Of a stretch of 64,000 bases of DNA, positions 1 to 39,833 are shown piece after piece. This stretch comes from an uncultured Candidatus Saccharibacteria bacterium (GTDB taxonomy: Bacteria > Patescibacteriota > UBA1384 > 2-12-FULL-50-11). The first letter of the stretch is position 1; the number at the start of each line of letters is the position of its first letter. The stretch is taken from contig CAZRED010000001.1 in NCBI GenBank assembly GCA_964599405.1, positions 218,323 through 282,322 of the forward strand, in the 5' to 3' direction. The position numbers were made by a program, and so were the translations under genes. The notes under the pieces were generated by a model. The model was not told where the DNA came from, searched no databases, and was given only the letters and a program-made list of their open reading frames with translations.

Positions 1-300
1 TAAAGTCATATACCAACGCTCATCCAAATTAAACTCATTAGCCAGGCGAACAATATCGCCCACAAATTTTTTATTGGGTGGCAAAAGACGTAGGTCGACA
101 TGGAACTTGAGTAACAATTCTGGATCATAATCAGCAGATTTGCTAAGCGACTGGTACCACTCCGCTCTTTTCTCCCAGGGTATACCTGTCTCCGGAATTC
201 TATACTTTTTCCTAAATTTTGATGTAGCACGTTGAAACCGCTTATACGCGATGAGCATTTCCCCAAAATCCTCCCAATATCTACTAGCCGTTTGATCCAT
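1..300 (-). CDS. hypothetical protein (partial, runs off window start)
   Basis: Open minus-strand frame from ATG at 298-300 (MDQTASRYWEDFGEMLIAYKRF...) with no stop before position 1. It is not in the ORF track because it lacks a stop, and is in a different frame from the listed 6..266 ORF. No recognisable domain. Confidence 0.35.
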   Translation of the reverse strand, partial: MDQTASRYWEDFGEMLIAYKRFQRATSKFRKKYRIPETGIPWEKRAEWYQSLSKSADYDPELLLKFHVDLRLLPPNKKFVGDIVRLANEFNLDERWYMTL

Positions 301-398
301 TATCTTTAATAAACCCGATCTTATAATGATTTACCACGCACCTCCAGTATTAACCTGTTATTTGATAGATTTCTCGGTATACTGCGGTTGAGTAAATA

Positions 399-2909
399 AT
401 GCCAATACAAAAGACATTTGATCGTTCAAAGAACTTTCTAGCACAGTTAATTTTTGCTCTTACATCAAAGCTCTTACTTAGGAACCGAGGGCTTTGGGGT
501 CTTGATGCAAAACGGCCCAAGCACCAAATCCTGGCCTTAAAAGTTGTTGGTCAAATATACCGCTATGGGAAGGTATCCGGGGAATACTTGAGGATTTGGT
601 TATTCACACTTCACGAAAAGGTCTCATCGAACTGGGGAATCTTTAAAGAGCTTTTATATCACTCTAGATCCTTCATCGTATTCACTTTAATAGTAGTCAC
701 CGCATCTCTTCTGCCACTGAAAGGTTGGGGATTCTTACTAACTCGTGATGTAATAATAGGCAGCTCTACCGCCTATGCGGCAGGTGCAACCGCCTTACTT
801 GGAATAGTATTTGCCCTCTATGCAGTTGGCTTTCAGGTAACTACGGCAAAGTTTTCTTCAAAAGTTACTGATTATTTAAACAGGGAGAGGGTGGGTCAAT
901 TCTTTTTCGCCCTACTAACGCTGACGGTTATTTTTTCCCTTGCCACCTTATTACTTCAGCAGGGAACGGAGGAAAAATTAGTAACAGCCTTTATTGTTAA
1001 TTCGTTTTTCATGTTTATTAGCCTAGCCGGACTCCTAATATTCAAAGATGACTACATAACTAAGCTGAAACCAAGACAGACTTTTGAACGGTTATATAAT
1101 CAAATTCTGAAGTCCATCAGGCAGGTCAATAAGTACGACTACCCTGAATTTGACTCTTTCAAAATCACCCGAGCTCAAAACGCAAAGTCTGGCCGCGTTT
1201 ACCCCTCCATTCACAGTAGTTGGTCAATTGTAACGAACCTCCAGCGTCAGGTAAGGGATCGTCTTAGTATTATCGAAGTATTTTATGATGAACTCATCAA
1301 AGATGATAAGCCCCAGGACGCAATGTATGGACTGTCGCTACTGGGACAGCTGCTCGCCGAATACACATCTGTTAAACATTTTATCGATAAGGACTTTGGT
1401 TGGTGGTTTCCCGACAAGCAAGAAATTGTCAAGGCAGACAACAGCACAACATTCGCTATAAAAGCTAATTACGAATCTAAAGGAATTGGTAGACTTGCCG
1501 TAACAAAAAAAGATTTTGATTGGGTTGAAGATACAATTATTGCATTCTTCACTCGCGTTCAAAAAAACACTGACTTTCAGAGAAATCCCGAATTAGGCCA
1601 AGCCTTAATTTTTGCGTACGAAATAGCTATCTCTGGTGACTTTTCGAAAACTAATAAGGGTCTCGAAAAGCTATTACGAGGGTGTTTTGAAAATCAATAC
1701 AACGAAATTGCTAGTAAAATATTCGCGCTTTTCGTTGATTTAGGAGAGAAGGTTTGTTCTGTAGAAGGCTGCAGGACTAATTACCTAAACGCTATGGGAA
1801 CGATAAAAACTATTATCGCAGACGGATTTTCTTTAAGAAGCTTTCCTGGCCATTTAGAGCACTGGTCAACAGACTTAGAGGCAAGAATTAAAGAGGTTAT
1901 CTCAGGCGTACCCCTAGTTTCACAGCAACGCATGATCTCTTGGAAAATGCCAAAGGAATTCTTTTCCAGCCTAACGCTACTTCGAAAAAGACTGCAAACA
2001 GAGTACGAGATCGAGGGAAGGATGGTAAGTCCTCCGGTGTGGCTAACAAAGGATGTAATGGACGAGCTCCGTCGTACAGAAAACGAGATCTCCCTAAAAC
2101 ATCAAGACGAGGTAGTTGAGGCAGTGATACGATTATCAAAATTCTGTGGCTTCTATCGTGATCACTTCGTCATGGTTATCTTAGACATGTTTAACCAACT
2201 TATTTATGCTGACAACTGGGCTGCCATTGATCGCCTGCTGACAAAGTTCGACAAGCAACTACTTACAGTTTTGCTTTCTATCCCCAAAGATCAATTTATT
2301 GAGAATGGACTTAGAGAGCAAATTGAGTTCGGAGTGTTTAATTCATTAATAGTCCGCAAAAAGGCCCCCTTCTTGTTTTACCTTAAGCTATTTTACCTAT
2401 CTCAAATTCGGCTATCAGCAGACATCACAACTCGATCACTCACCGATCAATTCAAAACGTTAAGAAGACCAATTATGCTGGGGAGCCTAGCTTATCTCGT
2501 CTCAGAGTTGGATCAAGATTTTAGCTATGTAACCTCTTTCACGGTAATGATGGAGAAGCTTTATCCCCGTGTGAGCATTGCCGATTTATATTCGCAAGTA
2601 ATCGATTATAGGAGCTTATTAGGCAGTGTGGGTATATTTGAGGTCAGCACTGAAGAGTTCGCTCGCTACAGAATTTACTATCGACAAGTAATTAACCCTA
2701 TTACGGACTTACCTCGCAGGTCTGAAACGTCTGGCTCTATACCGTACGGATTTCACACTAGCGAAATGGCTGACCACCCCAGCAGCTTTGTACGAGATAT
2801 TTCTCAACACGAATTCTCTGACATGGAAGAATGCCACGAGGGTTATGTTGGTTGGTTAAAAAAACGTGAGTTAATGAAAAAATTTATAACCCTATTAAGT
2901 AATGCCTAG
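399..2909 (+). CDS. large hypothetical membrane-anchored protein (about 4 predicted TM helices in residues 90-210, about 600-aa soluble C-terminal region)
   Basis: 836-aa ORF. Hydrophobic segments FIVFTLIVVTASLLPL, STAYAAGATALLGIVFALYAVGF, FFFALLTLTVIFSLATLLL, AFIVNSFFMFISLAGLLIF. AT-rich codon usage distinct from core genes. No family recognised by eye. Confidence 0.6.
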   Translation: MPIQKTFDRSKNFLAQLIFALTSKLLLRNRGLWGLDAKRPKHQILALKVVGQIYRYGKVSGEYLRIWLFTLHEKVSSNWGIFKELLYHSRSFIVFTLIVVTASLLPLKGWGFLLTRDVIIGSSTAYAAGATALLGIVFALYAVGFQVTTAKFSSKVTDYLNRERVGQFFFALLTLTVIFSLATLLLQQGTEEKLVTAFIVNSFFMFISLAGLLIFKDDYITKLKPRQTFERLYNQILKSIRQVNKYDYPEFDSFKITRAQNAKSGRVYPSIHSSWSIVTNLQRQVRDRLSIIEVFYDELIKDDKPQDAMYGLSLLGQLLAEYTSVKHFIDKDFGWWFPDKQEIVKADNSTTFAIKANYESKGIGRLAVTKKDFDWVEDTIIAFFTRVQKNTDFQRNPELGQALIFAYEIAISGDFSKTNKGLEKLLRGCFENQYNEIASKIFALFVDLGEKVCSVEGCRTNYLNAMGTIKTIIADGFSLRSFPGHLEHWSTDLEARIKEVISGVPLVSQQRMISWKMPKEFFSSLTLLRKRLQTEYEIEGRMVSPPVWLTKDVMDELRRTENEISLKHQDEVVEAVIRLSKFCGFYRDHFVMVILDMFNQLIYADNWAAIDRLLTKFDKQLLTVLLSIPKDQFIENGLREQIEFGVFNSLIVRKKAPFLFYLKLFYLSQIRLSADITTRSLTDQFKTLRRPIMLGSLAYLVSELDQDFSYVTSFTVMMEKLYPRVSIADLYSQVIDYRSLLGSVGIFEVSTEEFARYRIYYRQVINPITDLPRRSETSGSIPYGFHTSEMADHPSSFVRDISQHEFSDMEECHEGYVGWLKKRELMKKFITLLSNA

Positions 2910-3990
2910 AAATAGCGAACAATTCCATGGCACGCATTTTAGCGACCCCTTTAAAGAACTGCTAAACGGACACGCCCAGCGAGTATCTACTACGAAAGAT
3001 GCTATGCAGCTATTTCATGAGGTGCATAATTATCGTCAAAACTTATTTCCTCCACGCTCCGTCCCTGTTTCAGGGAGGCCGGGAAGTTCTACCCTAGACA
3101 GCAACTTTTTTAGAGTTTCAGTAGCTGGAAGCCCCGCCTTAAGTAGGGATCTGAACGGTCATTTTACTGACACTAGAGGGTACCCAGCACATGGGGTGTC
3201 ATATGATGGAGCTCACGACCTATCTGAGTTTTTTGAAAACTCTTTATACCACCTATTAATCGACGGCATTGCTACCTATGTGATCGACTGGGAGCGAATA
3301 AAAGTCGCTAATCGTTATTATACGATTCCCGTGGGCCTTCGCTATATAAATCCCTCAACCATAACTATCCCGAAAAACGGAGTTGTTAAACAAAAGTTCA
3401 GCTGGATTGCCAAAGAGGTAAATAACCATTTTGAGTATCAAGATTCTCGCTTCTCCATAAAAGATTTAGTTATTTTCAAGCACCCTATTTATCCATTTTC
3501 TCCAGTAGGAAGGTCTCTTCGCTTATTAAAACAACTCAACCAGTGGAGTATTTTTTCGTTGCAGCAAGGGCAGGCAAATGTTGAGCCCGAGAATCATTCT
3601 ATCGAGCTAGAAAGAACTCGCTACAAACTAGCCGAACCTTATCGCAATAGGGAAGCAATAGCTCGCGCTAAAGTACGAAGGATCTTCAATCAAATAATAA
3701 GCGATACGGGGGTTGAGGCAACCCCTTATTACGAAGTGCTTGCATTCGCTCAATACAAAATGCGATTAAACGAATTCCGAGACTATTTTATGAAACAATT
3801 TTCCGAACAAATACTCAAACAGATTCAAGAAAGGAACGGGTTAAAGAATCCCCCGCAGATTGAGTACCGAGGGTTTGCAAAGAATGACGACATACTTTCT
3901 TCTCTTAAGGAATTTGAGGAAAGAAAAGTTAACGTTGAGGAGTTTCTGAAGAAAGTTAAGGATGATTTCGACCGAGATCTTTACCAATAG
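2902..3990 (+). CDS. hypothetical protein, translationally coupled to upstream gene
   Basis: 362-aa ORF whose start ATGCCTAG overlaps the upstream stop by 8 nt. No TM segments and no recognisable motif. Confidence 0.55.
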   Translation: MPRNSEQFHGTHFSDPFKELLNGHAQRVSTTKDAMQLFHEVHNYRQNLFPPRSVPVSGRPGSSTLDSNFFRVSVAGSPALSRDLNGHFTDTRGYPAHGVSYDGAHDLSEFFENSLYHLLIDGIATYVIDWERIKVANRYYTIPVGLRYINPSTITIPKNGVVKQKFSWIAKEVNNHFEYQDSRFSIKDLVIFKHPIYPFSPVGRSLRLLKQLNQWSIFSLQQGQANVEPENHSIELERTRYKLAEPYRNREAIARAKVRRIFNQIISDTGVEATPYYEVLAFAQYKMRLNEFRDYFMKQFSEQILKQIQERNGLKNPPQIEYRGFAKNDDILSSLKEFEERKVNVEEFLKKVKDDFDRDLYQ

Positions 3991-4005
3991 AAAGGACTTC
4001 AGTAA

Positions 4006-5172
4006 GTGAGACACCGAAAAGATCGTGAGTACTACGAGAATTTCTACGACAAGCTAACCGTTCATTTTGCTCGGAACGATATGGATTCCTTTTTCAGGCT
4101 CCGCGACGAGCTGAAAAAGAAGCTGCCGAAAAAAGAGTTTGAAGCACAAAGCACGCTGTTCTGGCTCGATAAGCTTTGCGACATGCTGGTTATGTGGCCA
4201 TGTGGTGAGCGCTGGGAAAAACGGGGCAGAGAGATCGACAGCATGATGCTAGCCGACGGAAATAAAGACCGCCAACTGGAAAACGCCCGGCTTCGACAGG
4301 AACCTGTTTGCAAACACTGCGGCAAGATTGGTTTACGTATCACCAGTAAGTATTTGATGCATCGAAACGGCTACTCACAAGACGTGCCAGAAGAAGTTTT
4401 GTTCATGCTCGACTGCCCAGCTTGCGAAAAACGAAGCAGTTACTGGGAAAGCGGCGAGTCATTTGAGAGACAGTCGACCCTCTGTCCAAAATGCCAAAGC
4501 GAGATGAAAGAACGCGACAGTCGCAAAGGCAAGATAATCACTACAACCTACACCTGCTCCAAATGCAAACATTCGTATAAAACGGCGCTCGATCTTCGTT
4601 CAAAGCCAGAAGAACCGGATCCGGATTTCGAGAAGCATAAAGCGATTTTCTGTTTTGATAATAAAACCGGTTTGGAGTATTTGCAGCGGCGCAACAACTG
4701 GAAAGCGTTTCAAGAGATGATGGATAGGGAAAAAGAGAAGGAGCAAAACGAGGCGCTGTACGGCTTAGTCGCGAAGATCAAGCGATTAAAAATTGCCGAA
4801 CTGATTGAGCTAATGGAAAAAGAGCTCAAGAAAGTCGAGTTTATTGAGGTTCGCTTTGAGAAGCCGGAGATTGGCAAAGACGTCATCGTTTCGTTTAGCT
4901 GCTTAGACGGAGATTCCAAACGCAGCGCTTATGACAGCGAAAAAATCCTAAAACGAACCGTTAAGAAAACATTACACCCAACCAACTGGCGACTGATGAC
5001 CGAAGGTGTCAGTTACCGTCTTGGCTACTTAACCGGCCGAGTCCGAGCCTACGAAAACGAAGAAGATTTGGTAAGGCTGATCGAAAAAGATCAGCCAGAG
5101 CTCAAGCGGGAGAAAACGGCGAATGATCCTGATCAACTTTTAGACAAAGACGGAAACATTATTACTTTGTAA
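4006..5172 (+). CDS. hypothetical zinc-ribbon protein (four CxxC pairs)
   Basis: 388-aa ORF with CKHCGK...CPACEK and CPKCQS...CSKCKH, i.e. two predicted zinc ribbons, and a charged coiled-coil-like C-terminal half. Its 3' end overlaps the convergent DGR RT gene by 11 nt. Confidence 0.6.
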   Translation: MRHRKDREYYENFYDKLTVHFARNDMDSFFRLRDELKKKLPKKEFEAQSTLFWLDKLCDMLVMWPCGERWEKRGREIDSMMLADGNKDRQLENARLRQEPVCKHCGKIGLRITSKYLMHRNGYSQDVPEEVLFMLDCPACEKRSSYWESGESFERQSTLCPKCQSEMKERDSRKGKIITTTYTCSKCKHSYKTALDLRSKPEEPDPDFEKHKAIFCFDNKTGLEYLQRRNNWKAFQEMMDREKEKEQNEALYGLVAKIKRLKIAELIELMEKELKKVEFIEVRFEKPEIGKDVIVSFSCLDGDSKRSAYDSEKILKRTVKKTLHPTNWRLMTEGVSYRLGYLTGRVRAYENEEDLVRLIEKDQPELKREKTANDPDQLLDKDGNIITL

Positions 5173-6184
5173 GCGAGGCGGTGATCCGAGACTGAATTTT
5201 CTTTTTGAGCTTGTGGGTATCGGCGTGCTGTAAGACGCCGTGATACGACGCCAGCGACTGGCTAAGGTCGTATGTGGTGATCGACTTATCTTTGTATTCA
5301 CTTAGCCGCTGGTCAATCTTCTTGATGACTCGTTGTTTCGTTTTAGTTCGCAACTGCTTGCGGTACGGCAAGATAACGTAGCCTAAAAAGTCAGCGCCCT
5401 GCCGATATTTTCTGATCGATACTTTGTTTGGGTGTAACTCGAGCGATAGCTCCTTGGTTAAAAATGCCCTAACCGGCTCCAAGAGATTTATTAAATAGTC
5501 TTCACTCTCGGCGATAACGACAAAGTCGTCGGTGTAGCGAGCGTAATATTTTACGCCCAAAGTTTGTTTCACAAATTGATCAAACTCGTTCATGTATATG
5601 TTAGCAAAGAGCTGGCTGGTTAAGTTACCGATCGGCATACCGTCCGGAAAACTCCCGATGATTCGCTCCAGAAGCCAGAGGGCGTCCTCGTCTTTAATCC
5701 GTTTAGCGAAAGTTCGAATGATTAGCTCGTGGTCAACACTTCGAAAGAACTTTTTGATGTCACATTTGAGAACAAAACAGGGTCTGGTGTAATTATGACT
5801 AACCTGTCGGATCATTTTATCGACCGCCAAAACTCCTCGGTGAGTACCTTTGCCGACTCGGCAGGAGAATGACGTTGAAATAAACCCGGATTCGAAAATT
5901 GGATTGAGGATATTAAATAGGGCTTGGTGGACGACTCGATCACGCACCTCGGCCTTACTGATAAGCCGCTGTTTCGGGTCTTGGATGTAAAAGGTGTGAT
6001 ATTTGCCGTGCTTATACCGACGGCTTTTTAAGTCTCGGTGAAGCTGAAAAAGGTTTGGTTCGAGCAACCACTCAAACTTCTGAACATCTTTACGGCTCCG
6101 CTTACCTTTACGGAATTTTTCCCACGCCAAAAAGAGGTTTTCGACCGAAATGATTGCTTCGAACAGATTTTCGTATATTTTCAT
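5162..6184 (-). CDS. diversity-generating retroelement (DGR) reverse transcriptase
   Basis: 340 aa. N-terminus MKIYENLFEAIISVENLFLAWEKFRKGKR is typical of DGR RTs. Motif IGNLTSQ (the DGR-specific I/LGxxxSQ replacing group-II QG). Catalytic YTDD box (ARYTDDFVV). RDRVVHQAL motif. Confidence 0.9.
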   Translation of the reverse strand: MKIYENLFEAIISVENLFLAWEKFRKGKRSRKDVQKFEWLLEPNLFQLHRDLKSRRYKHGKYHTFYIQDPKQRLISKAEVRDRVVHQALFNILNPIFESGFISTSFSCRVGKGTHRGVLAVDKMIRQVSHNYTRPCFVLKCDIKKFFRSVDHELIIRTFAKRIKDEDALWLLERIIGSFPDGMPIGNLTSQLFANIYMNEFDQFVKQTLGVKYYARYTDDFVVIAESEDYLINLLEPVRAFLTKELSLELHPNKVSIRKYRQGADFLGYVILPYRKQLRTKTKQRVIKKIDQRLSEYKDKSITTYDLSQSLASYHGVLQHADTHKLKKKIQSRITASLTK

Positions 6185-6658
6185 ATGATGGAGACACTTG
6201 GTTTACCGATCTTTCAAAAGTCGTACGATCTTTATAAATCCTTCTACGGCTGTCGTGACCACGTCGCCAAACAAGACCGGCATACCGTTTGGCAGCGCTG
6301 CGAAAACCTAGTTCTCGATCTACTCCAGTCGATTATTCAGGCTAGCCAGCAAGATAAGGCGGATAAGCTGATAACACTCGAGAAAGCGAGCGTCCAGCTC
6401 AACATGCTTCGCATTTTATTACGGCTCACTAAAGACCTGAAAGTCATCGATCCCAAGAAATACCTAATGCTCGAGGAGCAAATCGACGAGGTTGGTCGAA
6501 TGTTGGGCGGTTGGCTCAGATCGACTAAGATCCCCCCCCCCCCGACTATTTGGGTTCGGACGCGCGTTAGTATGCTGTCTAAACTAAGATTGAGAGATAG
6601 TGCCGAGAGGCCGACAACCCCAAGTTGGAGTTGCGGTTACCATCCGAGTTCCTGTTGA
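6185..6658 (+). CDS. avd: DGR accessory variability determinant (Avd); true C-terminus probably near 6531-6590, the ORF reads through a C12 tract into the TR
   Basis: MMETLGLP... The C-terminal helix ...LEEQIDEVGRMLGGWLRS closely mirrors the Bordetella phage BPP-1 bAvd ...IAEVGRILGSWIAR, with four-helix-bundle family spacing. The start ATG at 6185 abuts the RT start codon (complement of 6182-6184). The part of the listed ORF before 6185 lies inside the RT gene and is discounted. Confidence 0.75.
   Translation: MMETLGLPIFQKSYDLYKSFYGCRDHVAKQDRHTVWQRCENLVLDLLQSIIQASQQDKADKLITLEKASVQLNMLRILLRLTKDLKVIDPKKYLMLEEQIDEVGRMLGGWLRSTKIPPPPTIWVRTRVSMLSKLRLRDSAERPTTPSWSCGYHPSSC
6532..6543. repeat. C12 homopolymer (G12 on the minus strand) at the avd 3' end, 59 bp from the TR
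   Basis: Twelve consecutive C read directly from the sequence. A tract of plus or minus 1 would end the Avd frame at about 6571 or 6590 instead of 6658. Confidence 0.9.
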
Positions 6659-6716
6659 CGTTGAACCCATTGGCATTGAAGTTGCCAACGTTGACGCGGT
6701 TGCCATTCGAATCGAT
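6603..6716 (-). repeat. DGR template repeat (TR), sense on the minus strand
   Basis: 114-bp near-identical copy of 7154..7267. All 17 mismatches are T in this copy on the plus strand (A on the minus strand) versus A/C/G in the other copy. It is AAC-codon rich on the minus strand and has a GC-rich 3' end (GGGGTTGTCGGCCTCTCGG, IMH-like). Confidence 0.9.
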
Positions 6717-6994
6717 ATTTGCCCATTTTCTTCTGGTTTCACCGAAAGTTGAGCCTTACCGTCGGATTCTATCTTGAACCCTGCGGCTAAAGAATTATCG
6801 AATCGACCTATTTACTCTTCTTTCTGAATTTTATTTGGGAGCAGCGTAGAAGCATCTCCACCAAAAATGAGCAAGAACTTTCTCTCAAATCTTTCTCGCA
6901 CGCTGCCGCAACCGGTGGCTGCTGACATTCTGGCGAACTGAAGAATGAGTGCCCCGCGAGACCCAACCATGGCCGGATCTACACTAGCAAGACG

Positions 6995-7010
6995 CCTGCA
7001 TTATACCTGT
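6995..7010 (-). promoter_or_regulatory. candidate promoter -10 (CAGGTATAAT on the minus strand) positioned to drive a TR-containing transcript
   Basis: The minus strand reads CCTAACAGGTATAATGC. It shares CAGGTATAAT with the target-gene promoter element at 8110-8119. The -35 is weak. Confidence 0.3.
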
Positions 7011-7074
7011 TAGGATGTCAGCCGTACAGGGTTAAACAACGAAAAATGTGGCGAGCGCTTCGCGCTCTTAGTAT

Positions 7075-7102
7075 AAAAAAGCCCCGGCGGAAAACCGCCG
7101 GG
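7075..7102 (-). terminator. rho-independent terminator downstream of the DGR target gene
   Basis: Stem CCCGGCGG / loop AAAA / CCGCCGGG, followed on the minus strand by a T6 tract. Confidence 0.7.
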
Positions 7103-7144
7103 AGTTCAAGGGGGACAAAAGGCTCAAGAGCCAATGTCCAAAGT

Positions 7145-8002
7145 TCAGAAGTTCCGAGAGGCCGACAACCCCAAGTAGGAGTAGCGGAAACCATCCGAGT
7201 ACCCGCGGACGCCGAACCCATAGGCATCGAAGCAGCCAACGTAGACGCGGTTGCCATCCGAAACGATGTCGGAGCAGCGAACGTAGACGTTCTCGAACAG
7301 GCGCTCTCCCGTATTCAGGAAGTGTCCCATGACCGTGTACGTCATAACGCAAGCTGTCGGAGTCGTCTCGTCCTTCAGGAGGGCTTGCTGCTCGTCCCAA
7401 GACTTGCTGGTCGAGTTATCGACCGGCTGCTTGCGGATGAGGTACCAGCGGACTTCGACTTTGGTCTTCTTGGCGAAGGCTTGAGTCTCATACCACCCGC
7501 CGGTCGGCGTGTAGAAGAGCTTGCCCTTCTTGGCTCGGCCAGCCTTGGTCCGAACTTGCAGGAGCGTCATCGGATAGCCGGCAACGAGCACGTGTGTGTC
7601 TTTGCAAGCTTCGAGAACTTCCTTAGTGAACGGAACCGTAGCGAGAGCGTCGAGCTGATCCTGGGTCCACTTAGCACCGAGGTGCTTCGCGGCTTCTTCG
7701 AGACCGAAGAAGTTCGTTCCCATGATCGTCTTGGCTTCGTTCTGGCTGTCGGTCAGCTCGATGGCGGCAACAGGCGGAGCCTGCTGGCCGGCCTTCTTCA
7801 AGGCCTTACGAGCAATCCGATCCATCTCGTTAGCGAGCTGGTCATAGCCCAGAAAGGCTTGAAAGCCCGGGCCGTCCAAACCGTTACGGTGGACAAAATC
7901 GCGCATGACCTGGTCGCACTTGTGAAACTGGTCGTCAGTGACTGGAGTAGATGGAGGGGTCTGTGTTTGTGGCATCAGGCGTCTCCTCGTGTTTATGCCC
8001 AC
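7145..8002 (-). CDS. DGR target protein with C-terminal CLec/FGE-like variable region; no signal peptide evident
   Basis: 285-aa ORF containing the VR. The C-terminal GFRYSY/ VRGYSDG pattern resembles C-type-lectin-fold DGR targets. The opposite-strand 354-aa ORF (7046..8110) is R/L/A/G-rich antisense. Confidence 0.8.
   Translation of the reverse strand: MGINTRRRLMPQTQTPPSTPVTDDQFHKCDQVMRDFVHRNGLDGPGFQAFLGYDQLANEMDRIARKALKKAGQQAPPVAAIELTDSQNEAKTIMGTNFFGLEEAAKHLGAKWTQDQLDALATVPFTKEVLEACKDTHVLVAGYPMTLLQVRTKAGRAKKGKLFYTPTGGWYETQAFAKKTKVEVRWYLIRKQPVDNSTSKSWDEQQALLKDETTPTACVMTYTVMGHFLNTGERLFENVYVRCSDIVSDGNRVYVGCFDAYGFGVRGYSDGFRYSYLGLSASRNF
7154..7267 (-). repeat. DGR variable repeat (VR) in the 3' end of the target gene
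   Basis: Counterpart of the TR. It encodes the last ~40 aa of the target protein (...VYVRCSDIVSDGNRVYVGCFDAYGFGVRGYSDGFRYSYLGLSASR). Differences from the TR occur exclusively at TR adenines. Confidence 0.9.
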
Positions 8003-8094
8003 GGGGCAGATTGTCTCCTCTCGGTTGAGATGAGCTGCTCAGAAACTGCTTATTTCCAAGAAGCTCATCTCAAACTTCTTACTGTTAATGTTCG

Positions 8095-8130
8095 TCGGAA
8101 GTATACCTGATTATACCTGAAAAGTCAAGG
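8095..8130 (-). promoter_or_regulatory. sigma70-like promoter of the DGR target gene (-35 TTGACT, 17-bp spacer, -10 TATACT) carrying the shared CCCTTGACTTTTCAGGT motif
   Basis: The minus strand reads CCCTTGACTTTTCAGGTATAATCAGGTATACT. The same extended motif occurs at 35675-35712 and 36293-36330. Confidence 0.55.
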
Positions 8131-8189
8131 GATTAGAGGACGATTTCGGCTATAAAAGTGTGAAGTGTTACGTGACACCTTACGGTTTC

Positions 8190-8317
8190 GTATCGTAACT
8201 TTTTAGCTGCTCGATTTCTTCTTTGGTTTTGGCTTCGTAGCTACATTGGGAGCAACGGTAAAAGTCATCGATTTTAATCATTGACCCCTTACACCGAGGG
8301 CATTTTTTGTAATGCAT
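8190..8317 (-). CDS. small zinc-ribbon protein (42 aa, CPRC...CSQC), candidate
   Basis: Translated by eye: MHYKKCPRCKGSMIKIDDFYRCSQCSYEAKTKEEIEQLKSYDTKP. It is below the ORF-track size cutoff. Confidence 0.3.
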
Positions 8318-8373
8318 GATTTCTGATTATCTCGGGAACAGGTACAAAGTCAATTATAGTTATCTACTAACTG

Positions 8374-8946
8374 ATGAGTTATGATCACCTCATGAAAAGC
8401 GAGCTACTAATCTTGGCTGAATTTCCCGAGGAAATTTGTTGGCTCGGTAATGAAATACTCCGCCAAAAAGCAGAGTCCCTCACTCAGAATGAAATAAAAG
8501 AGGGGAAAGCTGCAGAAATTACCAAAAGGCTAGAGATAACCCTTAAAAAGATTCAAAAACTTGGCAAGGGTGTTGCCATCGCTGCACCACAAATAGGAAT
8601 CTCTAAAGCAATAATCATTATTTACCTAGAAGATCGGTATATTCCTTTTATAAATCCTGTGATTACCACTGCTTCAGAAAACAAGAACTCTTTTCCCGAA
8701 GGCTGTTTGAGTAGTTTACCGTTAGTGGCTGAAACCATCCGACCGGCAGAAATTGACGTGAAATATTTAGACGCTGAAGGAAAAGAACATTTGGAACATT
8801 TTGATGGCAAGATGGCACGAATGCTCCAACACGAGGTTGATCATCTCAACGGCATTCTGTTTATTGACCGAGCGAACTTAAAGACAGGCCGTTTCATAGC
8901 CGACTGGGATGAGTACAAAGAAACAGCTCAGCTAACTGAAATATAA
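8374..8946 (+). CDS. def: peptide deformylase
   Basis: Motifs GVAIAAPQIG, EGCLS and HEVDHLNG (HExxH). Confidence 0.85.
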   Translation: MSYDHLMKSELLILAEFPEEICWLGNEILRQKAESLTQNEIKEGKAAEITKRLEITLKKIQKLGKGVAIAAPQIGISKAIIIIYLEDRYIPFINPVITTASENKNSFPEGCLSSLPLVAETIRPAEIDVKYLDAEGKEHLEHFDGKMARMLQHEVDHLNGILFIDRANLKTGRFIADWDEYKETAQLTEI

Positions 8947-8996
8947 ACCCCAATGGCTAATTCGACAATTCCAGGTTCGAAAGTACAATTCAAGAA

Positions 8997-9530
8997 ATGA
9001 AGACTCTGCCACGCGAAGAAGCCTCAATGCTTTTTGACGAGTGGTGGAATGATTTTGATAAAGAGTGGTTTAAAATCGAGGTTTTGCAAGACTACTCGGG
9101 TGAAGATAACGGACCTTCACTACAAGCTTGGTTAGAAGGCAAAAAGCAAAAAAGCATTGAGCTAATGAAAGCTACTATGAATATGGAATGGATTGAGAGT
9201 TGCCAAGCCAAAGTTGGACAAGGAGCGAAACTACTTCGTATCCGCCTCATAGGAAATCCTCTCACTCCGTACTCAGAGTGGGAAATGGAACACTATAAAC
9301 ACGTTAATATTCCTCTTTGTGGCGAGGAGGTTTTGCTGATTAATAAAACCGACGCCAATGACCTCTCCCTACCCACTGGAGATGTAATGATTTTTGATGG
9401 GAAGAGGGTTATTAAAAATACTTATACGCCAAATGGCTATATGACAGAGCAAACATTCTATGAGGATGAGGACGTTTCGACCTTTTTAAACCTGAGGGGC
9501 GAGCTACTTAAACGAGCAGTCCCGATCTAA
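8997..9530 (+). CDS. hypothetical protein
   Basis: 177-aa ORF with no recognised motif. Confidence 0.45.
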   Translation: MKTLPREEASMLFDEWWNDFDKEWFKIEVLQDYSGEDNGPSLQAWLEGKKQKSIELMKATMNMEWIESCQAKVGQGAKLLRIRLIGNPLTPYSEWEMEHYKHVNIPLCGEEVLLINKTDANDLSLPTGDVMIFDGKRVIKNTYTPNGYMTEQTFYEDEDVSTFLNLRGELLKRAVPI

Positions 9531-9535
9531 TAGCC

Positions 9536-10138
9536 TTACGTCTTTATCAGTGTGAAAGCGGAAACCAAGAAAAGGATCCCTATAATTATCCTGGCCAAGG
9601 GTTGGGCTAAGACTTTCTCTATTATCATTACTTTTTGGGATGCTTGGGCGATAAAAATAAACCAAAGAGCTGTGAACAGTCCCATCTCTAACGCAACGGC
9701 GAGCTGGAATGATAGATCTACGCCGTTGCTTCCCAGCTGACTAATGACCGCGATATAGAAGAAGACCATTTCAATATTTACAGTGTGGTTGATAAATCCG
9801 GCCAGCAAAGGGCTTATTGTCTGCGTTTTATTCCCGCCTGATTTTGCTACGTGAGGAAAGAAGCAAATAACCGCTTGCCAGATGAGCCAAGCTGCACCGA
9901 GGTACCGAATGACTTTTGCGGCGGAAGGAAAGTAGTCAAAAAAGACGCTTAGCCCAAAGATAGCAAGAATAACGACCAACAAACTTCCCAAGCCAAGGCC
10001 AATAGCAACTAGGCTGCCGTTACGAGAGCCTTCCTGAGACGAGTGCCTCAGAACCAGAAACCAGTCAGATCCCGGAAAGACAATCATCCCTGCCTGGAGC
10101 AGAACAACCGCAATTATTTGTTGCAGTGAATTTTCCAT
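9536..10138 (-). CDS. LysE/RhtB-family amino-acid exporter
   Basis: About 6 TM segments in 200 aa. N-terminal VFPGSDWFLVL resembles the LysE-type translocator PGP motif. Confidence 0.7.
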   Translation of the reverse strand: MENSLQQIIAVVLLQAGMIVFPGSDWFLVLRHSSQEGSRNGSLVAIGLGLGSLLVVILAIFGLSVFFDYFPSAAKVIRYLGAAWLIWQAVICFFPHVAKSGGNKTQTISPLLAGFINHTVNIEMVFFYIAVISQLGSNGVDLSFQLAVALEMGLFTALWFIFIAQASQKVMIIEKVLAQPLARIIIGILFLVSAFTLIKT

Positions 10139-10248
10139 ACTTACTCCATATCGTACTCGTTATTTGATATCGGAGTAGGCCGGAAAACGAGACAAAATGC
10201 AACTTCTTTTTTATAGTGTCTCAAATGTCTCATTTACCCTGATGGGAA

Positions 10249-10270
10249 GTTCTAGACCGGAATGTCCCGC
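10249..10270 (+). repeat. 22-bp direct repeat, copy 1 (GTTCTAGACCGGAATGTCCCGC)
   Basis: Perfect identity with 10719..10740. Lies 43 bp upstream of the peptidase gene start. Confidence 0.9.
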
Positions 10271-10313
10271 CAGTCTTGATAATAAAAATATAAATTCTAC
10301 AATTCGGGGATCC

Positions 10314-10718
10314 ATGGAAAGTGTCACTCAACAAGATAATTATGGTTGTGGGGTAGCTTGTGTCGCCTATATTAGTAAAAGGACTTATCGAGCAACGTTA
10401 AAAACATTAGACGCTAAAGCGGCTAAGACTCGGGGGTTTGCTTGCAAGGATTTGGTTATCGGCTTAAATACCATAGGCCATTCTTATACTTATAGTTACC
10501 TCCCAGGAAAGTTAAAACGAAAAATTTATGCTGATGGTGTTATCGTGTTTATTAAAAGGTCTGAACATTACCCGGCCGGACATTACTTAGTTCGAAGCCA
10601 AAATAAGTGGATGGACCCTTGGCTTAATTTTAAGAAGGATCGAAATATTAAAAAAGCTGAGTCTGGCTATCGAGCTAGGTTACCCGGCAAACCAGTTTAT
10701 GCCTTATTCCCAAATTAG
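10314..10718 (+). CDS. papain-like cysteine peptidase, C39-like domain protein
   Basis: QQDNYGCGVACVAYI matches the C39-family Q...CG(V/P)AC catalytic-Cys motif. The start is taken at the internal ATG with a GGGGA RBS. The track ORF from 10197 would include repeat copy 1. Confidence 0.5.
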   Translation: MESVTQQDNYGCGVACVAYISKRTYRATLKTLDAKAAKTRGFACKDLVIGLNTIGHSYTYSYLPGKLKRKIYADGVIVFIKRSEHYPAGHYLVRSQNKWMDPWLNFKKDRNIKKAESGYRARLPGKPVYALFPN

Positions 10719-10740
10719 GTTCTAGACCGGAATGTCCCGC
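10719..10740 (+). repeat. 22-bp direct repeat, copy 2
   Basis: Begins immediately after the TAG stop of the peptidase gene. Confidence 0.9.
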
Positions 10741-10803
10741 ATTGTTTGCTTCTAATAAATTCTCTATGTATATTCCGGTGAGACACACAGGAGGAATTCG
10801 TCT

Positions 10804-11136
10804 ATGAACCTTATATTTCGAATCAACACTACTGCCGATGACGCGGGTGAAATGCTTGGGTTGGTCAATAAGCTCGAATGGAGGTTAGAAGTCCTCAATC
10901 TTGGAGTGACCATCAAAAAGACCATGGTTTCGTCTCGGAAGAAACGTAACGAACCGCACACTCTAACAGTTGGCGAAAGGGCCGTTCGGGGTGTTGAGCA
11001 AATTGAGGCACTTCTTAGTGATATGCGCCTTAATCCTTACTGGCTTACCGCTGAACAGGCTTCTGTAGAAGTGCGTAAATGGCCGACATGGAAACGTGGT
11101 GACTACTCACATCTCAAGCTTCCCGAAGCAACATAG
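10804..11136 (+). CDS. hypothetical protein
   Basis: 110-aa ORF with an AGGAGG RBS 7 nt upstream. Confidence 0.45.
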   Translation: MNLIFRINTTADDAGEMLGLVNKLEWRLEVLNLGVTIKKTMVSSRKKRNEPHTLTVGERAVRGVEQIEALLSDMRLNPYWLTAEQASVEVRKWPTWKRGDYSHLKLPEAT

Positions 11137-11219
11137 TCCGGAGCCCGAAACGATCTCAACCCGTCCTTCTGGACGGGTTATCCCTTTATTTACGGACAAT
11201 CCTAGTTCATAATCGAACT

Positions 11220-11600
11220 ATGAAAAATCGAGTTGTGCATTTTGAGATTGGAGCAGAAGATCCGAAAGAATTGTCCGAGTTCTACAGAAAAGCGCTGGGC
11301 TGGGAGATTAACGAATGGCCGGGCTCGAATTATTGGATGGTCGGCACGGAGAATGACCGCTCTGTCGGCGCTATCAACGGCGGCATCATGAAGCGCTACG
11401 AGCAAGAAAAAACGATCAACACCATCGAGACCGAAAATATTGAGGCAACAATTAAAGACATAACGGATGCCGGTGGCAAAGTCGTCAAACCTGTTGCCGA
11501 CATGGAAATGGGTGAAAAAGATATAATGCGTTGGTGCTACTGCGAAGACCCGCAAGGCAACATCTTCGGCCTGATGCAGATGGTCAAAACCGCCAAGTAG
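11220..11600 (+). CDS. VOC (glyoxalase/bleomycin-resistance) family protein
   Basis: VHFEIGAEDPKELSEFYRKALGW N-terminal beta-alpha-beta-beta-beta module signature. Confidence 0.7.
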   Translation: MKNRVVHFEIGAEDPKELSEFYRKALGWEINEWPGSNYWMVGTENDRSVGAINGGIMKRYEQEKTINTIETENIEATIKDITDAGGKVVKPVADMEMGEKDIMRWCYCEDPQGNIFGLMQMVKTAK

Positions 11601-11606
11601 GTTCGA

Positions 11607-12199
11607 TGAATCGCTGCTCTTGGCCGGGAACAAACGAGCAGATGATTCGTTACCACGACGAAGAGTGGGGCATGCCCTGCCACGACGATCGGAAACTGTT
11701 TGAATACATCGTGCTCGACACTTTCCAGGCCGGTTTGAGTTGGGCAATTGTGCTGAATAAGCGGGAGGGCTTCCGGAAGGCGTTCGACAACTTTAATCCA
11801 GAGAAAATCGCCCTGTATCACAATATTGTGATACAACGGCTCAAGAACAATCCGGAAATAATTCGCAACAAACTCAAGATTGCCGCGACGGTAACTAATG
11901 CTCAAGCGTTTTTGGCAATCCAGAAGGAGTTTGGCAGTTTTGATAGGTACATTTGGCAGTTTGTTTACCCCGAGCAAGGTCGAGGGGTCGGTGGCAAACC
12001 TCTTGTCAACTCGCCCAAAGAAGATTCCCATATCGCTAGCTCCTCCAAAGAATCCGATGCGATGAGCGCAGATCTGAAAAAGCGCGGCTTCAAGTTTGTC
12101 GGCACCACTATTTGTTATGCCTTTATGCAGGGAGCGGGCTTAGTAAACGACCACACAACTAATTGCTTTCGTTACAATGACCTCAAGAATGCAAAGTAG
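11607..12199 (+). CDS. tag: DNA-3-methyladenine glycosylase I
   Basis: YHDEEWGMPCHDDRKLFEYIVLDTFQAGLSWAIVLNKREGFRKAF matches the Tag family. Confidence 0.85.
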
Positions 12200-16776: not shown

Positions 16777-16816
16777 AACGCAGTAGTGCCAGGCCAGGAA
16801 GTTTTTCGCAGCGACC

Positions 16817-19485: not shown

Positions 19486-19653
19486 CTGCCCTGACTATAT
19501 ATTCCTACGTTCTTGTTGGAAAGCCGGAGTTTTTCGCAGCGACTTACGCAGCCGTCCTGGCATGGTCGCCCGTAGGGCGCAGGCGGCGAGGAATAAAGCG
19601 CAGCGAGTCGCTGGACGAGCAAGCGGTCGCGAGAAAAAGCTCCGGCTTGAATG

Positions 19654-35200: not shown

Positions 35201-35647
35201 TCATGGGTACTCCAGCCAGGACCTGTTGTCCCATTCTCCCTCTTTACCTCTGACTAGCGACAGGCTATCAAACCTGTAGCTATTCATTAGGGCAAGGAGC
35301 GTTTCAATTGTGCTAAGAAACCCGTTACCATTTTTGCGGTGTCCCTCCATCCTCTCGTTGAATTTCTCACCAGTGTGTTCGAAGAACGAAAGAACGCTAG
35401 TGTCGAAGTCAAGAAAGGTGATTACCCTGAGTTCCCTGGCGTCGTCGTAGATGAATTGTGAGTTGGGCGATCCAACAACGATGACTGTCATCCCCACCTT
35501 CAGCTTTTTTGGTGAAAGAATTTGGCCGGGACGATACACCCGTTTCCTTGAAGTCAAGGAATAATCCTCGAAGTTCTCTTCCGACAGCTCTTCAACCGCC
35601 TCTTCAAAGAAGCGAAGACCTCGGTCTTGATCTTGTAATTTTGACAT
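35201..35647 (-). CDS. hypothetical protein
   Basis: Start moved to the second ATG (MSKLQDQ...), because the predicted -10 and transcription start of the shared promoter lie inside the first 14 codons of the track ORF. AGGAG lies 11 nt upstream. Confidence 0.5.
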   Translation of the reverse strand: MSKLQDQDRGLRFFEEAVEELSEENFEDYSLTSRKRVYRPGQILSPKKLKVGMTVIVVGSPNSQFIYDDARELRVITFLDFDTSVLSFFEHTGEKFNERMEGHRKNGNGFLSTIETLLALMNSYRFDSLSLVRGKEGEWDNRSWLEYP

Positions 35648-35674
35648 GTATCTGTGCACTCCTGCGTTTGAGCG

Positions 35675-35712
35675 CAATAACCATACCATATCTAACCTGA
35701 AAAGTCAAGGGC
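35675..35712 (-). promoter_or_regulatory. promoter carrying the shared CCCTTGACTTTTCAGGT motif (-35 TTGACT, 17 bp, -10 TATGGT)
   Basis: The minus strand reads CCCTTGACTTTTCAGGTTAGATATGGTATGG. Confidence 0.5.
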
Positions 35713-35780
35713 TAGGGTAGGTATTTTGGGTAAAGAAAAGGCCGCGCTTTCGCGCGGCCAGTGGCTGGGGCATTGAATTG

Positions 35781-36254
35781 TTACTCCGGACGAACGAACA
35801 CCCAATTTGTACTTCCGCCGTACCGGTTAATCGCCTCGCCATTACTGGCGTGCAACCACGTTCTTTTATCGCGTCGAACAATCGCGTAAACGTGCGGATT
35901 ATCACAGGAGTCCTTAATCGGATCCATTGCGACCAGAAGATCTTCCTCCGTAGGGAGGGCCTCACATTGGAGCAGAAGCTGGGGCCCAGCTTCAGACGGG
36001 CAACGCCCGAGGCCTAGCTTGGTGGCGGCATCAAACGTCTCAGCGACAGTGCAACCATCCGGGAACCCAAGCTCTTCGTTGGATCGAACAACCAAGTTCA
36101 GATCTGTCGGCTCGCCGACAGCACTGGTCTTGTACAGCATGTCGTGGGCCCAATCACTGATACTGTGACCTTTTCTTCCTAGTTGTTCGCGAAACGTCCC
36201 TGGATTGACGTCCCCAAGACGGATCATCATCTTGACTTGCAAGTTCTGAGTCAT
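35781..36254 (-). CDS. hypothetical protein
   Basis: The track ORF starts at a TTG. The first ATG (MTQNLQVK...) at 36254 is used. No motif recognised. Confidence 0.5.
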   Translation of the reverse strand: MTQNLQVKMMIRLGDVNPGTFREQLGRKGHSISDWAHDMLYKTSAVGEPTDLNLVVRSNEELGFPDGCTVAETFDAATKLGLGRCPSEAGPQLLLQCEALPTEEDLLVAMDPIKDSCDNPHVYAIVRRDKRTWLHASNGEAINRYGGSTNWVFVRPE

Positions 36255-36292: not shown

Positions 36293-36330
36293 GGCGCAAT
36301 ATACCATATCCAACTTAAAAAGCCAAGGGT
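36293..36330 (-). promoter_or_regulatory. promoter, diverged copy of the shared motif (-35 TTGGCT, 17 bp, -10 TATATT)
   Basis: The minus strand reads CCCTTGGCTTTTTAAGTTGGATATGGTATATT. Confidence 0.5.
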
Positions 36331-36447
36331 TGTAGTAGGTATTTTCGCATTTAAAATTATCGCAAAAGCGGCGAACCTGACCCACAGCAGGTCCGAGAGC
36401 CAGCTTTTGCTCCTCGCCCCTGCGGGAAGCGTGGCGGGGGTGGAGGT

Positions 36448-38813: not shown

Positions 38814-39833
38814 GTGAAGATACTGGCGATTGAAACTAGTTGTGACGAATCGGCTGCGGCAATTGTGGCGGAAGACAATTTCCGGCCGGTAGTTTTGAGT
38901 GAAGCGCTCGCCTCGCAGATGGCCATCCACGCTGATTCCGGCGGGGTAATTCCCAACGTCGCAGCGCGCTTACACGTCGAGAATCTGCCGGCCGTTTTGA
39001 AAAAAGCCACCAACTCCCAGCGCTTGGATTACGACGCTGTCGCCGTTACCGCCGGGCCAGGGCTAATTGGATCGTTGTTAATCGGTGTAGCGGCGGCTAA
39101 AACCATTGCCATGACTAAAGGCCTGCCGTTTTTTGCGATTAACCATATGGCCGGCCATGTATATAGCGCTTGGCTAGGTGAAGCCCTGCCGGAGTTACCG
39201 GCCTTAATTGTGATTGTCTCTGGCGGCCACACCGAACTGGTTTTAATGGAACGGCACTACCGCTTCCAGTTGCTTGGCGCTACCCGCGACGATGCCGCCG
39301 GCGAAGCGTTCGACAAAGTCGCTCGAATGTTGGGCCTCCCCTACCCGGGCGGACCGGCCGTTTCTGAATTAGCCAGACACGGTAAGCGCGACGCGTTTGA
39401 CTTCCCGATCGGCCTCAACGAACGCGACAACCTAGACTTTTCGTTTAGCGGCTTGAAGGGGGCGGTATTCCATACCCTGGAAAAGCAGAAGCAGCCGTTG
39501 TCGGAGCATCTCCGAGCCGACATTGCCGCTAGCTTTGAAGACACCGTTGCCCGGACGATCAGCCGTAAAACCGTCGCCGCCCTGCAATCCAACCCGGAAG
39601 TCCGCTCGGTTTGTTTGGTCGGCGGCGTCGCTGCCAACCACCATCTGCGGGTGGAGCTGGAAAAAGCCGTTAAAAATGCTCGGGGCGATGTTCAGTTCCA
39701 CCTGGCACCGCTCGAATACTGCACCGACAACGCCGCCATGATTGGTGCGGCGGCCGTTTTCAAGCATTTGTTTGGAAAACCTGATAACTGGTATGATGTC
39801 GAGGCCAATCCCAACCTGGAGTTGACGCCATGA
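38814..39833 (+). CDS. tsaD: tRNA N6-adenosine threonylcarbamoyltransferase
   Basis: MKILAIETSCDESAAAIV, HMAGHV metal-binding motifs. GTG start. Confidence 0.9.
   Translation: MKILAIETSCDESAAAIVAEDNFRPVVLSEALASQMAIHADSGGVIPNVAARLHVENLPAVLKKATNSQRLDYDAVAVTAGPGLIGSLLIGVAAAKTIAMTKGLPFFAINHMAGHVYSAWLGEALPELPALIVIVSGGHTELVLMERHYRFQLLGATRDDAAGEAFDKVARMLGLPYPGGPAVSELARHGKRDAFDFPIGLNERDNLDFSFSGLKGAVFHTLEKQKQPLSEHLRADIAASFEDTVARTISRKTVAALQSNPEVRSVCLVGGVAANHHLRVELEKAVKNARGDVQFHLAPLEYCTDNAAMIGAAAVFKHLFGKPDNWYDVEANPNLELTP

Follow-up and report, generated by a model that had tools for sequence, protein, structure and literature searches.

The window analysed here is a 64-kb stretch (64,000 nucleotides; positions 218,323 to 282,322 of contig CAZRED010000001.1, assembly GCA_964599405.1) from an uncultured Candidatus Saccharibacteria bacterium, a chromosome of the Patescibacteria/Candidate Phyla Radiation (CPR) type with murE, femAB, polA, holA, def, rpsT and two tRNA genes, and it carries a diversity-generating retroelement (DGR). 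Three minus-strand promoters with a common extended -35 region are found in it: site 1 lies in front of the DGR target gene, which encodes the variable protein, and sites 2 and 3 lie in front of two small genes (35201-35647 and 35781-36254) in the gap between murE and polA. All three are, on balance, probably strong promoters of the housekeeping sigma-70 type, which owe their extended identity mainly to descent and not to a dedicated regulator. Site 1 would be a piece of a conserved 5' module, composed of a small Zn-ribbon open reading frame (ORF), a promoter, a structured leader RNA and the target gene, which is held in common with the DGR of L060/L144, a DGR with a target from another protein family. 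Sites 2 and 3 would be tandem duplicates of one ancestral murE-polA promoter, which is present as a single copy in a related species; site 3 is predicted to drive an orphan of the variable-protein family diversified by the L060/L144 DGR, and site 2 an ORFan. RNA polymerase with the primary sigma factor is expected to initiate about 7 nt downstream of each -10 box and, since the promoters are alike, the genes are likely to be expressed strongly and probably jointly. This type of promoter may have spread together with the 5' modules of DGR targets and by local duplication. All coordinates refer to the window, and the L-numbers (L039, L060 etc.) denote comparison loci.

Anatomy of the three promoters

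The presence of three minus-strand promoters with a common extended -35 region and a 17-nt spacing, proposed in the preliminary description, was confirmed, and each of them is followed by an ORF with a ribosome-binding site (RBS). The sequence CCCTTGACTTTTCAGGT occurs in exact copies at 8131-8115 and 35711-35695 (both on the minus strand), and a copy with three mismatches, CCCTTGGCTTTTTAAG, is located at 36329-36314(-). In 3/3 sites a -35 box near TTGACA and a TAnnnT -10 box are separated by a spacer within the 16-18 nt range typical of sigma-70 promoters; GGTAT stands in the same register in all of them, which gives the -10 region the form GG-TAnnnT, and the distance to the downstream start codon is 40-125 nt. 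Each site is intergenic, 5' of a co-oriented gene, and kept at the orthologous position in relatives (L049; L060/L144). The same spacing and -10 form are exhibited by L049, L060, L144 and L039, and in all seven members of the family the 17-nt spacing and the TAnnnT -10 box are constant, with a variable spacer sequence. The spacer of site 1 contains a 10-nt direct repeat, CAGGTATAAT followed by CAGGTATACT (8097-8116, minus strand), with two -10-like boxes one helical turn apart, and the equivalent arrangement (nAGGTAnAAT, then nAGGTATAnT) was found in L060, L144, L039 and L145.

The exact repeat alone is weak evidence, because about five further dispersed pairs of exact 16-mers arise in the window by chance (about one such pair is expected in 64 kb). 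With up to three mismatches allowed, the 16-mer has three matches in the window compared to 0.59 expected, and 4 of 100 shuffles reach this number. A scan with a position weight matrix (PWM), derived from six sites and overfitted, gave 45-52 bits for the three sites and at most -2.8 bits for the rest of the window; the next-best matches, the tRNA-Ser and polA promoters, were within the shuffle noise. The weight of the evidence lies in the common register with the -35 and -10 boxes, the position 5' of ORFs, and the gap in the PWM scores. Ubiquity upstream of most genes had been named as the observation that would speak for a generic promoter; in the window, only 3 of about 30 promoter regions contain the motif, so it is not ubiquitous there. 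A -10 region of the form GG-TAnnnT is found also at the promoters of the genes starting at 399 and 27825, of gene 27488, and of tRNA-Ser and polA. As for the common transcription factor or sigma specificity that had been suggested, nothing indicates one: the hexamers, the spacing and GG-TAnnnT are of the housekeeping type of other genes in the window.

Compared to the canonical sigma-70 promoter, the sites exhibit the expected TTGACT -35 box, 17-nt spacer and TAnnnT -10 box and, at sites 2 and 3, a TG one base upstream of the -10 box (extended -10). They differ from it in that the identity extends past the hexamers (CCC upstream, TTTTCAGGT downstream), in the GG before the -10 box, which is found at many promoters of this genome, and in the two -10-like boxes of the site-1 type. 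The likeness of sites 2 and 3 spans about 70 nt, from AAAATACCTAC upstream through ATTGCGC in the 5' untranslated region (UTR), and amounts to 26 of 32 positions rather than the 29 of 32 claimed originally. The start codon of ORF 35201-35689 is the second ATG, at 35647, as had been proposed, because the first in-frame ATG (35689) falls in the -10 region; 35647 is preceded by an AGGAG RBS. For 35781-36254, the start at 36254 had likewise been assigned correctly, but it is the first in-frame ATG and not the second, since the listed ORF begins with a TTG at 36299, within the promoter.

The 5' module of the DGR cassette and its leader RNA

The DGR downstream of site 1 comprises a reverse transcriptase (RT) gene, a template repeat/variable repeat (TR/VR) pair with adenine-specific differences (85% identity between TR 6599-6716 and VR 7150-7267, with the mismatches at TR adenines), and the avd accessory gene. 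The ATG of avd directly abuts the ATG of RT on the opposite strand (6184/6185, head to head), and therefore the promoter of each of these genes must lie within the other one; avd is inverted upstream of RT also in L039, L061, L062, L145 and L149. Homologs of the window target are DGR targets of L074, L066, L092, L101 and others (45-53% identity). A single family uniting the targets of the window, L060 and L039 was considered and rejected, as they are mutually unrelated by BLASTP.

Site 1 and its flanks are about 74% identical to the promoter of the DGR target in L060 and its relative L144. In blastn comparisons the window matches L060 with 73-74% identity over 8361-8200 and 8139-8013, and L144 with 75% (8356-8205) and 64% (8361-8013); CTAATCCCTTGACTTTTCAGGTA is a stretch identical between the window and L060/L144 (23-nt identity within a 350-nt homologous module). 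Upstream of the L060 target (P0003), CTAATCCCTTGACTTTTCAGGTAaAATaAGGTAgAgT is followed by a leader with the same hairpin and preceded by a 45-aa Zn-ribbon ORF. This ORF was found only in the window, L060 (2711-2889) and L144, where it is duplicated (3165-3300 and 5228-5379); its amino-acid match (71% identity) is only to L060. No strong terminator is present between site 1 and the promoter of the Zn-ribbon ORF at 8353-8326. On the other hand, the RT of the window exhibits 57-59% identity to the RTs of L066, L074 and L092 versus 45% to that of L060, and the window target is 50-53% identical to the targets of L066/L074, with that of L060/L144 belonging to a different family. Thus, the cassette is a mosaic, because its RT and target are nearest to L066/L074/L092, but its 5' module is nearest to L060/L144. 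The breakpoint of recombination cannot be placed, since the N-terminal 75 aa of the window target have no significant similarity to other targets. L039, a locus found by the motif alone, contains a DGR with two targets, and a promoter of the motif type lies 5' of both.

The leader transcribed from site 1 (8094-8008) has a predicted fold energy of -39.6 kcal/mol (z = -3.85) and scores 58.1 bits with the covariance model R1. Related leaders contain the box GTTCTTTGAAA or CATTAACA, often CAAGGTTC, and a long hairpin with the base (T)GAGRC.../...GYCTCA; the tail that follows the hairpin repeats its 5' arm and covaries with it, which suggests a possible alternative pairing. RNAalifold identified 24 pairs, 18 of them with compensatory changes, and in a set of 17 leader sequences 19 of the 24 pairs exhibit such changes. 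In these 17 sequences, 92.9% of the cells are paired, compared to 72% for shuffled sequences and about 41% for slid controls, and the covariation score is 0.665 versus 0.26 (0 of 500 shuffles reach it); the pairing statistic is partly circular, because the seed sequences were picked for having the hairpin, and independent support comes from the conserved base of the stem and its consistent position. The covariance model recovers the 12 training loci and, in addition, L098, L074, L076, L078, L075, L073, L123, a second copy in L066 and, later, L144; all matches are within about 3.2 kb upstream of an RT gene, with none elsewhere in 583 kb of sequence. About 20 related DGR targets have the leader hairpin in their 5' UTR, and about one fifth of the related cassettes share it. 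In Rfam 15 no match was found at E <= 1 for window 6500-8400 and L066 3100-5100, and none at the gathering score in the 12 loci. In L083, a LOOT RNA (RF03000, 78.5 bits) occupies 1804-1926(-) and precedes a related DGR RT by about 3 kb.

Two further observations concern the surroundings of the cassette. The GC content is 0.40-0.46 in window 1-12000 (0.52 in the DGR stretch 6001-8000) versus 0.47-0.55 elsewhere, and this region, containing the DGR, may be a genomic island. Sub-threshold matches to the RT-16 motif (RF03019, about 24 bits) are located immediately 5' of the TR in both the window (6721-6873, minus strand) and L066 (4291-4476); this signal may correspond to a divergent TR-associated RNA.

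The murE-polA gap and the orphan variable-protein gene

Promoter pairs were compared over 31 positions outside the hexamers, with a background of 9.6 +/- 3.2 obtained from other DGR-target promoters. Sites 2 and 3 agree at 24/31 positions, site 2 and the L049 promoter at 22/31, site 1 and the L060 promoter at 26/31, and the L060 promoter and site 2 at 21/31; the last pair exhibits 82% identity over 45 nt, including upstream sequence. Judging from this similarity, a single ancestral promoter gave rise to sites 2 and 3, which are tandem paralogs. A terminator and TTCTTTACCCA precede both the polA promoter and site 2, forming a tandem unit in the murE-polA gap. In L049, which is labelled 'Patescibacteria group bacterium' and whose flanking genes exhibit 74-86% nucleotide identity to the window, femAB and murE are followed by just one promoter, which precedes a lone small gene, a terminator and polA. 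Over 32 nt this promoter matches site 2 with 94% identity and, together with a 5' UTR hairpin that contains one compensatory change, it matches site 3 with 74% identity over 65 nt; its -35 box begins two bases past the stop codon of murE, and downstream there is a 5' UTR with an RBS. The protein encoded in the L049 slot was tested as a homolog of the 35781-36254 product or of P0003, but the similarity is not significant (z about 1, profile score -1.8). The slot retains its promoter while the gene changes, because the L049 promoter is orthologous but the protein behind it has no significant similarity.

The product of 35201-35647 (small protein 1) retrieved only itself in a k-mer and HMMER search of 5.8 billion proteins, and one marginal match in a full HMMER search of 1.8 billion representatives; it has no match in Pfam or NCBIfam and no similarity to any ORF in the comparison loci. 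It is not a paralog of the product of 35781-36254 (small protein 2), a relationship that was also considered. An exact-sequence look-up with a small-protein query gave only an identical Logan contig of 12.7 kb. Small protein 2, in turn, is confidently related to the proteins P0003-P0008 (E = 8e-38 to 8e-17). In L060, L061 (two copies) and L062/63, its homologs P0003, P0006 and P0007 (226-228 aa) are encoded directly upstream of inverted avd and RT, with VR/TR pairs present; the further sampled members of the family, in L145, L149 and L150, adjoin an RT gene (two of the three also with an annotated avd), and altogether homologs are next to DGR genes in seven loci. This is also the family to which the target of L060/L144 belongs. 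Small protein 2 aligns with the 226-228-aa proteins over its full length, to their extreme C-terminus ...WVFVRRK, and its C-terminal 41 aa match the translated TRs of the homologs' loci. A profile search identified 1530 relatives, and those with a named source are from Patescibacteria, Berkelbacteria or Wolfebacteria. The AlphaFold2 model of small protein 2 (predicted local distance difference test, pLDDT, 72.9; predicted template modelling score, pTM, 0.71) was compared with the PDB by Foldseek, and the top matches are nearly all C-type lectin domains, albeit weak (E = 0.12-1, template modelling score 0.3-0.47).

The VR-like 3' end of 35781-36254 scores 122 against the L060 VR versus 49 against the TR of the window, which was rejected as its template, as it does not match this 3' end. 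The 64-kb window contains no cognate TR for the gene and no other repeat of its 3' end save a chance 17-mer (50298-50314). The gene is considered an orphan because no TR in the window matches its VR-like 3' end. With 157 aa compared to about 226 aa, small protein 2 is missing the first ~70 residues of its homologs, and the gene is missing their leader. Therefore, 35781-36254 encodes an N-terminally shortened orphan homolog of DGR variable proteins. It may represent a relic, or else another DGR, located outside the window in the same genome, may have it as its target. Thus, the idea that the motif connects the DGR target with both distant genes holds for 35781-36254, a homolog of DGR variable proteins, but not for 35201-35647, an ORFan for which no connection to the DGR was detected. 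What ties the DGR target to 35781-36254 is homology and shared promoter ancestry, and not a demonstrated common regulator. Another case of orphan or remote targets is offered by L146 (2512-4190), where two members of this variable-protein family are arranged in tandem, their upstream regions being identical for about 200 nt, and where no RT is located within 3.5 kb.

Coordinates of the promoters, genes and RNA elements discussed in the text
Feature	Position	Strand	Details
Site 1, DGR target promoter	8100..8131	-	CCC-TTGACT-(17 nt)-TATACT; -35 TTGACT 8128-8123; -10 TATACT 8105-8100; 17-nt spacer; also recovered by generic promoter scan
Site 2, ORFan promoter	35680..35726	-	AAAATACCTAC-N5-CCC-TTGACT-(17 nt)-TATGGT; -35 TTGACT 35708-35703; -10 TATGGT 35686-35681; 17-nt spacer
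Site 3, promoter of orphan variable-protein gene	36298..36344	-	AAAATACCTAC-N5-CCC-TTGGCT-(17 nt)-TATATT; -35 TTGGCT; -10 TATATT 36303-36298; 17-nt spacer
Degenerate fourth copy, polA promoter	35135-35104	-	CCCTTCCCACCTCTCGGTTAATCCGGTATTCT; CCC-TTCCCA-(17 nt)-TATTCT
ORFan gene (small protein 1)	35201..35647	-	148 aa; RBS AGGAG
Orphan DGR variable-protein homolog (small protein 2)	35781..36254	-	VR-type C-terminus ...NWVFVRPE
Zn-ribbon ORF (45 aa, CxxC...CxxC) and its promoter	ORF 8317-8180; promoter 8353-8326	-	TTGACT-16-GATAAT; 5' module common with L060/L144
Structured 5' leader	8008..8094	-	Box GAACATTAACAG; 21-bp hairpin, arms 8073-8053 / 8045-8025; tail GAGAGGAGAC repeating the 5' arm
Further leader copies	L066 3260-3358; L120 2982-3082; L098 836-928(-); and others		Covarying hairpin
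DGR target (variable protein) gene	7145..7975	-	ATG 7975 preferred, RBS GAGGAGAC; GTG 8002 alternative start
VR	7150-7267	-	C-terminal end of target
TR	6599..6716	-	VR differences at TR adenines, minus strand
avd, inverted	6185..6658	+	Pfam bAvd, E = 1.8e-20
DGR RT	5162..6184	-	Pfam RVT_1, E = 4e-23

The window contains also other repeats. The sequence GTCGCTGCGAAAAACT (minus-strand reading) occurs at 16800-16815 and 19528-19543, in two intergenic gaps, in each case just past one minus-strand gene and ahead of the next; a 19-nt direct repeat, CTAGACCGGAATGTCCCGC, has one copy inside ORF 10197-10718 (10252-10270) and the other just past it (10722-10740); a perfect 18-bp palindrome, TATCACAATATTGTGATA, at 11816-11833 is operator-like; and the heptamer AAGTCCC is repeated in tandem at 41620-41645, inside ORF 39830-41950.

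Distribution of the motif, alternative explanations and significance

A scan of 596 Gb of sequence with the pattern CCTTGRCTTTTYARG-N8-GGTAT identified 53 sites, mostly promoter-like in Clostridia, with some directly 5' of tRNA genes, one 5' of secE-nusG in Magasanikbacteria and one 5' of a secreted protein in Saccharimonadales. Among the six matches in Patescibacteria, L039 lies upstream of a DGR target and L049 in the syntenic murE-polA slot. As for the check for further matches in front of DGR targets, recommended at the outset, L039 is such a match (1 of 6 in Patescibacteria); secE-nusG and tRNA genes carry the pattern as well. Viral contigs were considered as carriers of the motif and dismissed, as their five matches are all generic AT-rich strong promoters. 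Exact copies of CCCTNNNNTTTTCAGG are 70-fold enriched (5 in 583 kb versus 0.07 expected) and two of them are sites 1 and 2, one is the L060 promoter, and each of the two L061 targets has one in its leader; this association is unbiased, because L060 and L061 were retrieved by protein homology and not by the motif. In the two genes of L061 a separate promoter lies ahead of the element, which occupies about +15 to +31, and L062/63 has an indel variant of it; in L061 and L062/63 it folds into a hairpin, CCCTG...CAGGG, inside an outer stem (GATGG/CCATC or AGTGG/CCACT). Even when three mismatches are allowed, the 16-mer is absent from the target promoters of 80 RT-related metagenomic loci with Patescibacteria-type DGRs (L064-L143), so the motif is not a general DGR feature. 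All sampled promoters of DGR targets are near consensus, whatever their sequence family.

Several of these observations weigh against the explanation favoured here, i.e. housekeeping promoters with an extended identity due mainly to descent. Outside the hexamers, site 1 agrees with sites 2 and 3 at only 17/31 (z about 2.4) and 14/31 positions (z about 1.4), respectively, and this likeness could have arisen by convergence on a strong consensus. L049 keeps the promoter of the orphan gene in front of a protein without significant similarity, and the orphan gene is missing both the leader of its homologs and their ~70 initial residues; because the gene is shortened and leaderless and the L049 promoter precedes a dissimilar protein, the promoter did not merely travel attached to its gene. 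Finally, the same pattern is found at housekeeping promoters of unrelated bacteria. A rival proposition is that all three sites are generic strong promoters of the lineage, that site 1 matches sites 2 and 3 by chance or convergence, and that the DGR connection of 35781-36254 is incidental. The modest excess of motif matches in the window, the five or so exact 16-mer pairs unrelated to it, the predominance of Clostridia promoters (some of tRNA genes) in the 596-Gb scan and the near-consensus character of all sampled DGR-target promoters are in line with it, as is the resemblance of the tRNA-Ser and polA promoters of the window to the spacer of sites 2 and 3. We nevertheless regard it as unlikely: the 23-nt identity with L060/L144 lies inside the 350-nt homologous module, the L060 promoter resembles site 2 well beyond the hexamers, and the element is enriched 5' of the same target family in loci selected by protein homology but absent from the 80 RT-related loci.

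A further proposition is that a dedicated cis-regulatory site, either an operator or an RNA hairpin, is formed by the core CCCT-N4-TTTTCAGG; it would co-regulate active and orphan variable-protein genes as a small regulon and, depending on the locus, overlie the -35 box or sit early in the leader. CCCTTGACTTTTCAGG is the sequence that a dedicated protein other than RNA polymerase with sigma-A would have to bind. The element in L061 and L062/63, downstream of a separate promoter and forming a nested hairpin, agrees with this proposition, and so do the positions outside the hexamers (CCC, TTTTCAGG) that are identical in the window, L060/L144 and L049, and the 70-fold enrichment with every unbiased match 5' of variable-protein genes. 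The site-1-type promoters of the window, L060, L144, L039 and L145 offer in addition their 10-nt direct repeat, and direct repeats are typical of protein-bound sites. However, no candidate regulator gene is linked to the element, and its stem positions are invariant, so that no covariation backs an RNA structure. The copies in the window form only an imperfect palindrome, and promoters of similar appearance precede secE-nusG and tRNA genes. Most of the related DGR targets examined are also without the element (about 38 from the RT scan and 5 more of the target family, among which L145 and L149 have merely approximate versions). An alternative sigma factor is at odds with hexamers and spacing of the housekeeping type. 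Such a dedicated site is improbable in our view. The most elaborate version, which is about as improbable, is a portable 5' control module in a DGR lineage of Patescibacteria, with the core CCCT-N4-TTTTCAGG, the 10-nt repeated -10 region and the covarying leader, swapped between cassettes with unrelated targets and read by a specific factor that switches active and orphan genes together.

It is highly improbable that the sites are not promoters at all. In that case the repeated sequence would mark where a small mobile or recombination element ends, or would be an RNA element whose transcription starts at promoters further upstream, for instance that of the Zn-ribbon ORF. Units of terminator, TTCTTTACCCA and promoter do form a tandem repeat in the murE-polA gap, the slot contains different genes in the window and in L049, and read-through of site 1 from the promoter at 8353-8326 is possible, with no strong terminator between them. 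However, the 17-nt spacing and TAnnnT are kept in seven members despite the variable spacer, there are no inverted repeats, target-site duplications or integrase, and the -35 box of L049, so close to the murE stop, is followed by a 5' UTR with an RBS. Descent of strong housekeeping promoters, within DGR-target 5' modules and by local duplication, remains the explanation we prefer.

The cassette can be compared with the CPR set of DGRs in Wu et al. 2018 (PMC5758913), about 90% of which have the architecture B3, a variant of the order and orientation of avd and TR. Like these, it is composed of a target with a C-terminal VR, a TR, inverted avd and RT, with adenine-specific changes and a single adjacent target; unlike them, it has the conserved 5' module of Zn-ribbon ORF, promoter and leader, which is mosaic with respect to RT and target. 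Promoters or UTRs are nowhere mentioned in that survey, and full-text literature searches found nothing on promoters or leaders of DGR targets. The gene 35781-36254 resembles remote or orphan DGR targets in its distance of 28 kb from the DGR, its homology to variable proteins and its VR-type C-terminus, but known remote targets keep a VR that matches the TR of the element, and this shortened gene does not match the TR of the window. Conserved structured RNAs near DGR reverse transcriptase genes have been described as RT-1 to RT-19 (Weinberg et al. 2017, PMC5737381), and the only position relative to a DGR given there is that of RT-10, between TR and RT in phage BPP-1. The weak RT-16-like signal just 5' of the TR in the window and L066 is of this kind, but the leader hairpin differs from these motifs in its location in the 5' UTR of the target gene and in having no match in Rfam 15.

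To our knowledge, very little is known about the expression and regulation of DGR targets. The promoter described here is ordinary, and what is new about this known system lies in the details: the conserved module of promoter and leader, the mosaic way in which it is distributed, and the orphan variable protein. Near-consensus promoters precede the DGR targets of the Patescibacteria type, and a hypothetical chromosomal gene under a look-alike promoter turns out to be an orphan variable protein. Like the leader RNA and the mosaic module, each of these findings provides a testable handle on how DGRs are expressed and on what becomes of targets without their former DGR. If nothing more than descent and a strong consensus underlies the sharing, this is a useful annotation and no more; if the portable control module is true, it would be the first cis-regulatory code for the expression of DGR targets.

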